Shown: in pieces, positions 12,694-14,406 of the stretch
How positions within the stretch are numbered: the first letter of the stretch is position 1
Layout of the letters: the number at the start of each line of letters is the position of its first letter
DNA from: Ostreococcus lucimarinus
Lineage: Eukaryota
Reading direction: 5' to 3' (one strand)
Assembly (NCBI GenBank): GCA_000092065.1
Contig: CP000587.1
DNA: 64,000 nucleotides
The notes under the pieces: generated by a model
Databases searched by the model: none
The model's input: the letters and a program-made list of their open reading frames with translations, nothing else
Told to the model about the DNA's origin: nothing
Program-made: the position numbers and the translations under genes

Positions 12694-12795
12694 ATGACGC
12701 GCGCGCCCGTTCCGTGCGACGCCTGCGCGCACGGCGTCGCGCGCCTGTACTGCGCCGCGGACGACGCGAAATTGTGCCTGCGATGCGATCGAACG
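12694..12795 (+). CDS. CONSTANS-like protein, exon 1 (B-box-type zinc finger)
   Basis: MTRAPVPCDACAHGVARLYCAADDAKLCLRCDRT has the CX2CX8CX7CX2C spacing of a B-box. A GTGCGC donor follows codon 34. Confidence 0.6.
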
Positions 12796-13383
12796 GTGCG
12801 CGACGCGCGAACGCGAACGCGATTTTCGACACGCCGCCGGAAAGCGGGCGAGGGCACTTTACGCGGGAACGACGCGCGGCGCGCGCGCGCGCGCGACGAG
12901 GACGCGCGCGGGGGCGGGATTTCGGTGACGCGTATTTTGTGCCACCGTCGCGACGCGTCGAGGAGGTCGACGACGCGCGTCCGCGGGATCGCGCGACGAC
13001 GTTCGTCGCGGAGGCGTTCGTTACGAATGCGTGAATTGTCGACGACTGACGACGACGACGACGACGCGATGGACGCGCGAGCAGGTGCACAACGCGAATA
13101 AATTCGCGGAAAAACACTCGAGGCGTTGGTTGTGCGAGATGTGCGCGCACGCGTGCGCAGAGGTGCGAGAGAGGCGAGGCGAGGCGAATTCGAACGGCGG
13201 TTGAGTAGTTAGGGCTCGGACGAGGACGCGGCGAGACGCGAGAAGGCGAGGGCGAAGGCGCGCGCGCGAACGGGGACGCGATGGGGCGTTTCGAACTCGC
13301 GAGAGACGATGTGCGAGGATGTGGTGTCGACGAGAGACTGACGAAACGTTCACGTCGCGCGACGACGATCGGCGGAAACGTAG

Positions 13384-14406
13384 GTTATGCGCGAAAACGA
13401 AGACGGCGTCACGGGGACGACGACGTGCGAGGCGTGCGATCGAGCGCACGGTTCGGGACGCGCGGTGGCGCTCAGAGCGTTTCACGAATGTGCGATGTCG
13501 GATGAGGCGTATCGCGCGGTCGGGAAAGGGATGAAGCAGACGCGGCGGGGGAGGCCGTCGAATAAGAGCAAGTCGGAGGTTCAAGCGCTCGACGCCGAGG
13601 TGTCTGATGAAACGTTTTGGAGCCTGGTGAAAAAGTCGCAAATTCGTCCGAGCGAAGAGCCCTCGTTCGATCGAGTGGACCTTTTTAGCGGCGACGACGG
13701 TCGGGGTCAAATGACGAGCGATGATAAGGACGATGAAGCGTTCATCGACGGTTTGATTCGCATGCCGTCGTTTACGATGCTCGACGCGGAGATGAACGTG
13801 CGAGTGGACGGTTCGGCGGCGAATTTCGGGACGCCGTCGCCCGCAGAAAGCTCGGGCGCACCGGTGCGACAGGCGTATAACAGTATTTTCGAATCGAGTC
13901 AGGCTACGGGGCAAATGTCGCGCGCCCGTGCGACGTCTCAATCGGACAGCGCCGCCGACGGCATCGATTCCATGTTCATGCCGGGGGGCGTGAGATCGAG
14001 CAACGAGCACGTAGAAGAGCTTTTGGCGCCGCGAGTGGATGGCGAAAGAAACATGTTCTACGACATCGACGCCGCGGGACAGTGGCGAATGAAGAAACCT
14101 AAGAAGAGTGGGCGTCCCAAGAAGATGTCCGCCGCCCGCAACGCGCGCAAACCCGCGGCGACGAATTCGTCGGCGGCGTACGCCGCGAACGCGCCAGATC
14201 ATTCTGCCAAACTCCCGGGCGGTGCATCTCGTCAACAAGTGCTCGATCGGTACCACGAGAAGCGTAAGGCTCGCACATACGGTAAAACAATCCACTACGA
14301 GGCGAGAAAAGTCCGCGCCGAAACGCGCGTTCGAGTCGGTGGTCGATTCGCCAAAGCGGAAGACAGATCTTGCGACGTCTCAATCAAGGGTGCCGTACCC
14401 GCGTGA
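13384..14406 (+). CDS. CONSTANS-like protein, exon 2 (contains CCT domain)
   Basis: Same frame as exon 1. CCT motif [42 protein letters not shown]. The inferred intron 12796..13383 has GAGACTGAC ~42 nt upstream of the acceptor AG and gives a phase-0 junction (…CDRT|[8 protein letters not shown]…). Confidence 0.7.
   Translation, partial: [340 protein letters not shown]

Follow-up and report, generated by a model that had tools for sequence, protein, structure and literature searches.

A 64,000-nucleotide (nt) stretch of Ostreococcus lucimarinus DNA (GenBank assembly GCA_000092065.1, contig CP000587.1; here, the window) carries, at 12694-14406 on the plus strand, a feature that by its sequence is COL3 (Ol07g00850*), an already published CONSTANS-like (COL) transcription-factor gene of this marine picoalga. 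A first-pass annotation of this feature had proposed two exons and, as its headline, a B-box with a degenerate zinc-ligand position. Here, comparative analyses support, with high confidence, a three-exon gene predicted to encode a canonical two-zinc B-box 1, a reduced second Cys module, a middle region, a CCT domain and a C-terminal tail, and to act through a mechanism like that of CONSTANS (CO), Hd1 and CrCO.

The identity of the gene follows from an exact nucleotide match of the published Ol07g00850 sequence, over its first 399 nt, to the window from 12694, together with matching published coordinates. With the window position taken as the chromosome 7 (chr7) position minus 128,000, the published interval chr7 140,694-142,406 corresponds to 12694-14406, with identical start and stop. 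These are the ends listed for Ol07g00850* in Table S3 of a study in ISME J 2025 (PMC12704426), whose Tables S2 and S3 annotate the gene as “Bbox - CCT” with three exons. That study, on clock and light-sensing genes in the Mamiellophyceae, recognized three CONSTANS-like genes per Ostreococcus species and found that the intron inside the B-box had been wrongly predicted in most Mamiellales CONSTANS-like models (PMC12704426). Membership in the Mamiellales COL3 orthogroup is further indicated by the same neighboring genes and by exon-3 orthologs recovered at E values of 1e-217 to 1e-32. The first-pass annotation was thus right that one intron-interrupted CONSTANS-like gene lies here, with an N-terminal B-box, a C-terminal CCT domain and the ends of the published gene.

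An ATG at 12694 opens the frame MTRAPVPCDACAHGVARLYCAADDAKLCLRCDRTV, which continues R-D-A-R... to a stop at 13099-13101, and a separate long open reading frame (ORF) occupies 13387-14406, with its ATG at 13387 and the CCT domain at its end. Translation in all frames of the DNA between the two revealed a short open stretch, 13085-13162, that encodes VHNANKFAEKHSRRWLCEMCAHACAE, the expected continuation of a plant B-box after CDRT. Joining 12694-12795, 13085-13162 and 13384-14406, all on the plus strand, gives an in-frame 1203-nt coding sequence for a 400-amino-acid protein. Exon 1 (12694-12795; 34 codons, MTRAPVPCDACAHGVARLYCAADDAKLCLRCDRT) contributes the start codon and the B-box 1 ligands C8, C11, C20, D23, C28 and C31. 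Exon 2 (13085-13162), a 78-nt mini-exon, contributes H36 (CAC, 13088-13090), H45 (CAC, 13115-13117), the five linker residues and the opening CxxC of the second module (C51, 13133-13135; C54, 13142-13144); exon 3 (13384-14406; 340 codons plus the TGA stop at 14404-14406) encodes the rest of that module, the middle motifs, the CCT domain and the tail. Intron 1 (12796-13084; 289 nt, phase 0) begins with the donor GTGCGC and ends with the acceptor CAG (...GAGCAG before exon 2), and intron 2 (13163-13383; 221 nt, phase 0) begins with GTGCGA and ends with TAG; in both, a branch-like ACTGAC precedes the acceptor by 40-45 nt. Neither length is a multiple of 3; read-through of intron 1 hits the stop at 13099-13101, and intron 2 also has an in-frame stop.

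“Val-Arg” follows CDRT in the unspliced frame because the GTG CGC donor of intron 1 is read as codons. The CGC codon noted after CDRTV in the first-pass annotation is indeed present (12799-12801), and the Arg reported at the His position is literally there; as an account of the protein, however, neither that Arg nor the alternative Met survives, the former being donor read-through and the latter the product of a direct join of exon 1 to the last exon. A sequencing error at CGC was rejected, as independent metagenome copies read GTGCGC (L009) and GTGCGA (L001) at the same place. Both supposedly missing His residues lie in the overlooked exon, so the splice pattern that the annotation itself had named as refuting its claim, one restoring C-X4-H...H, was found, here by comparative genomics.

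Seven loci were compared, comprising the window and six orthologs fetched from metagenome assemblies (35-91% protein identity). In all seven, exon 1 ends ...CDR(T/A) and is followed by GT(G/A)CG, and a mini-exon of 26 codons, (V/I)H-x-AN-x2-A-x-(K/R)H-x-R-x-WLC-x2-C..., precedes the CCT exon; both introns are in phase 0 at identical positions throughout. Donors read GT(G/A)CG in 14/14 introns, and acceptors read YAG after CTGAC. Intron 1 measures 132-390 nt and intron 2 measures 128-234 nt (128-390 nt overall); with a single exception, each contains an in-frame stop and/or has a length not divisible by 3. The H-x-A-N...H motif is also found in the published COL3 proteins of O. tauri, M. pusilla and M. 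commoda, and exon 2 is 78 nt in the published models of O. mediterraneus and M. pusilla (PMC12704426). On these alignments, the same length, phase and motif across loci exclude a chance origin of the mini-exon. At the nucleotide level, exons were more conserved than introns in most pairs, with a weak contrast in close or GC-rich pairs (for L003, 0.74 versus 0.70); the case for the gene model is therefore built on the protein motif, on phase and length, and on the in-frame stops.

The one exceptional intron belongs to an O. tauri-like ortholog (L007 3500-3631), in which intron 1 is just 132 nt, a multiple of 3, and free of in-frame stops. Because of this, exon 1, the intron and exon 2 were called by gene callers as one fused ORF (P0019); retention of this intron would add 44 residues to the B-box rather than truncate it. 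All matches of a protein search with COL3 were last-exon ORFs of metagenome assemblies, P0001 among them at 99% identity to the ORF from 13387, and none of the database proteins covers >86% of the spliced COL3 query. Two metagenome proteins, P0013 and P0018, are environmental COL3 copies with frameshifts or internal deletions in which the CCT region is kept; these could be assembly errors or natural variants. P0018 and P0019 were considered as spliced products and rejected, the former as a deletion/frameshift variant and the latter as intron read-through. Likewise, L009 and L010 (98.7% identical to the window) were rejected as transcript evidence, being genomic and collinear with the introns retained.

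In the spliced protein, residues 8-45 match C-X2-C-X8-C-X2-D-X4-C-X2-C-X4-H-X8-H exactly, so that the eight ligand positions are all canonically spaced; this pattern is present in 10/10 COL3 proteins compared. Residues 6-59 align without gaps to the tandem B-box of Arabidopsis CO (PDB 7VSQ; E = 1.9e-14). The Cys spacing given in the first-pass annotation for the exon 1 frame (C-X2-C-X8-C-X7-C-X2-C) is present as described, whereas its degenerate ligand position disappears once the mini-exon is included. Judged from the sequence, B-box 1 of COL3 is an ordinary canonical B-box, and its apparent loss of a zinc ligand is a gene-model artefact. COL3 has both the CCT domain and the plant-consensus N-terminal B-box of CONSTANS-like proteins, and the presence of a canonical B-box 1 sets it apart from the B-box-less CMF family.

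Several observations weigh against this three-exon reading. The related sequences recovered were all genomic DNA or unspliced ORFs. The Pfam zf-B_box profile (PF00643) scored 17.8 bits without the mini-exon and 20.7 bits with it (E = 4.7e-4), below its gathering cut-off of 24.1. The generic zf-B_box model derives largely from animal B-boxes, and the alignment to CO structures, a far stronger match, was taken as decisive. An AlphaFold2 model, computed from the window protein and homologs, was uninformative: its mean predicted local distance difference test (pLDDT) score was 46.8, and residues 1-73 scored below 50. Lastly, the published re-annotation of Ol07g00850 uses other junctions (12807, 13183 and 13387), which must be weighed in their own right.

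In Table S3 (PMC12704426), the exons of Ol07g00850* are chr7 140,694-140,807, 141,085-141,183 and 141,387-142,406, that is, window 12694-12807, 13085-13183 and 13387-14406. This is a curated entry that reads in frame, and it predicts 410 amino acids with CDRTVRDAVH and CAEVRERRGEM at the junctions. Relative to it, the GT-AG model lacks the insertions RDA and VRERRGE, includes V61, and is 10 residues shorter. The published introns, however, begin CGAACG and GCGAAT, and the second ends TAGGTT, so that neither is GT-AG; the spacing between the sixth and seventh ligands (C6-H7) becomes 8 instead of 4; exon 2 grows to 99 nt, whereas that of O. mediterraneus and M. pusilla has 78 nt; and no ortholog has anything matching the extra residues. 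The authors' manual correction was tBLASTn based (PMC12704426), by which exact splice sites are not fixed. We therefore regard it as quite improbable that the published junctions are real, and the GT-AG junctions as the more likely ones from sequence, pending RNA data. The 12 and 21 nt at 12796-12807 and 13163-13183 (chr7 140,796-140,807 and 141,163-141,183) of the published model are probably intronic, and one Val codon (13384-13386; chr7 141,384-141,386) is omitted from it. At the same junctions, the published COL3 protein of strain RCC809 has an extra “VR” and an extra “V.” The published O. lucimarinus and RCC809 models would carry intron-derived residues in or near the B-box, which is relevant to anyone aligning, modelling or expressing the protein.

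Two further gene models dispense with the mini-exon altogether. If exon 1 ran straight into the ORF at 13387, as in the first-pass annotation, the result would be a B-box without His ligands (Arg or Met in their place) that either does not bind zinc or uses alternative ligands; the exon 1 frame alone does read CDRTV-R, and the long ORF does open with an ATG. Yet the conserved 78-nt exon supplies VH-x-AN-x5-H at canonical spacing in 10/10 COL3 proteins, GTGCGC fits the donor consensus of all 14 sampled introns in the family, and the mini-exon is included in the published models of five other Mamiellales species, all of which makes the two-exon gene very improbable. The other model splits the locus into a small B-box peptide gene and a CCT-only, CMF-like gene starting at ATG 13387. 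Prokaryote-style gene callers do return the CCT ORF alone, and CCT-only CMF proteins of Bathycoccus are treated as orthologs (PMC12704426). But the B-box and CCT exons are collinear on the same strand, within 700 nt of each other and with matching phases, in every ortholog; the second Cys module is divided by the exon 2/exon 3 junction, with its four Cys invariant on both sides; and the starting Met of the long ORF is not conserved (ITIEN in O. tauri, VLTTE in L006). Two separate genes are accordingly the most improbable arrangement, and the three-exon COL3 is retained. The case is chiefly one of correction, since the seeming zinc-ligand loss is of the artefact type about which the 2025 Mamiellophyceae study had warned. 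The gene is already known, and the anomaly comes from a missed 78-nt exon; beyond the published gene, the splice-junction refinement and the half B-box described below are minor additions.

The true ligand degeneracy sits, as read from the aligned proteins, in the second Cys module and not in B-box 1. In COL3, five linker residues, as many as in CO, separate H45 from CEMC, and CEAC comes 20 residues later; this CEMC-X20-CEAC remnant (13133-13437 on the plus strand; coding 13133-13162 and 13384-13437; alignments A1 and A2) spans the exon 2/exon 3 junction. C51, C54, C75 and C78 are invariant in the ten COL3 proteins, and the loop between the two pairs has 20 residues in Ostreococcus, 16 in M. 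pusilla and 12 in M. commoda. In the same ten proteins, the second module contains no conserved Cys, Asp or His equivalent to ligands 3, 4, 7 and 8. Pfam reported a single B-box stretch and no second B-box in the spliced COL3 protein, and the CO alignment (7VSQ) reaches the CxxC of CO B-box 2 and then ends; the second complete B-box of the CO/CrCO-type tandem is thus absent from COL3.

B-box and RING fingers follow a cross-brace scheme in which ligands 1, 2, 5 and 6 make up one zinc site. The second module looks like a half-retained B-box 2 whose four Cys correspond to these ligands. We tentatively propose, though with rather less than firm conviction, that Mamiellales COL3 proteins carry a “half B-box” in which one four-Cys zinc site was retained and the other (ligands 3, 4, 7 and 8) was lost, with a loop whose length is free to range between 12 and 20 residues. 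Such a module might represent a natural step between COLs with tandem B-boxes, such as CrCO, and the CMF proteins of Bathycoccus, which have none. If so, COL3 should bind three zinc ions, not four. O. tauri COL1 and COL2 have no such second-module remnant, a difference that is informative on B-box loss in the lineage. In the published annotation, COL3 is labelled just “Bbox - CCT” and the remnant goes unmentioned (PMC12704426).

The CCT domain (14230-14358, plus strand; residues 343-385), which the first-pass annotation had called canonical, is recognized by Pfam as PF06203 at 56 bits (cut-off 28.4; E = 4.1e-15). Among PDB entries, it matches rice Hd1 (7C9O, E = 8.5e-9; 25/48 residues identical) and the CO CCT/NF-YC chimeras 7CVO and 7CVQ (E ~3.5e-7). 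The middle region is long and probably disordered, with short conserved motifs. Two of these contain GRP: an invariant, putatively AT-hook-like basic motif at 13540-13569 (plus strand; residues 113-122; G116 and R117 invariant; no Pfam match) and a variable second one, KKSGRPKK, at 14101-14124 (plus strand; residues 300-307), present in some orthologs only; conserved acidic-hydrophobic motifs accompany them. At the extreme C terminus, the VP-like tail KGAVPA (14386-14403, plus strand) follows the ortholog consensus KGP[VIF]PA; its final Ala is invariant, and L006 (O. mediterraneus type) has EPAA. This tail resembles the COP1-binding VP motifs of plant BBX proteins, which suggests a possible link to COP1.

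In the CO literature, B-boxes oligomerise and the CCT domain together with NF-YB/YC binds CORE/CCACA elements; in Chlamydomonas, CrCO is found in complex with NF-Y. By homology with CO, Hd1 and CrCO, the CCT domain of COL3 likely docks on the NF-YB/NF-YC histone-fold dimer, and the resulting COL3/NF-Y trimer would bind CCACA/TGTG-type promoter elements. The B-box region, with zinc predicted at both sites of B-box 1, may mediate self-association and partner binding, and COL3 would then act in light, photoperiod or clock output. Mamiellales COLs remain putative photoperiod or clock-output regulators; the 2025 study terms the proteins putative and, for COL genes, reports only metatranscriptome co-expression (PMC12704426). 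No evening element or CCA1-binding motif (AAATATCT or AATATCT) was found within 700 nt upstream of the gene in the window or in the six orthologs.

Gene order around COL3 is kept in the six orthologous loci (Reeler/cytochrome b561, COL3, LYR, Usp, FAST), and a block of RNase T2, Reeler/cytochrome b561, COL3, LYR, Usp and FAST-like genes is common to all fetched Ostreococcus-like contigs (window 14728-16661; L001-L007). The upstream neighbor, the Reeler/cytochrome b561 gene, ends near 12150 by comparison with L001. A 730-amino-acid ORF on the minus strand (10958-13150) overlaps COL3 exons 1 and 2 and is probably a GC-rich open-frame artefact extending that genuine neighbor. In the divergent intergenic region, a low-complexity, Ala/Asp-rich ORF of 73 amino acids (window 12380-12601, plus strand; L001 2976-3197) is annotated as a gene in metagenome data from the close relative but is probably not one. 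At 12610-12675, 19 nt before the COL3 start codon, lies a microsatellite, (GAAC)16, interrupted twice by A-rich sequence; it is shorter in L001 (a 91%-identity relative), and none was seen in the more distant orthologs.

Among known systems, the closest is the published O. lucimarinus COL3, Ol07g00850*, with the same locus, sequence, start, stop and three exons, from which the present model differs only at the internal junctions. The listed orthologs, O. tauri ostta07g00980*, RCC809 Od07g01230*, O. mediterraneus Ostme06g00920, M. pusilla Mipuc12g00160 and M. commoda Mipur04g00160*, likewise have three exons, an intron in B-box 1, a canonical B-box 1, CxxC...CxxC after a five-residue xRxWL linker and a C-terminal CCT domain, although the Micromonas proteins are much longer and have middle regions unrelated in sequence. 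Bathycoccus prasinos CMF3 (Bathy02g04900), placed in the COL3 ortholog clade as proposed previously (PMC12704426), shares the CCT domain but has no B-box and a single exon. Angiosperm COL6/COL16 proteins, with one B-box and a CCT domain (PF00643 and PF06203), were the best named matches in profile searches (E = 1e-13 to 1e-16); here, however, only the B-box and CCT show similarity, the best local alignment covers ~10% of the query, and the one sequence checked (P0021) is without the CxxC...CxxC remnant. The tandem B-boxes of Arabidopsis CO and COL2 (7VSQ, 7WSJ, 7VSP) align with COL3 gaplessly through the whole of B-box 1, its eight ligand positions included, and on as far as the first CxxC of CO B-box 2; CO differs in having two complete B-boxes with four zinc ions in all, whereas the second box of COL3 is without ligands 3, 4, 7 and 8. 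The best functional model is Chlamydomonas reinhardtii CrCO, a green-algal B-box and CCT regulator that partners with NF-Y under COP1/SPA-type E3 control. The earlier label of a single-B-box, CrCO-type gene does not fit, since CrCO, set against COL3 here by description, has two almost identical B-boxes (PMC3732916), whereas COL3 has one full B-box and the remnant of a second.

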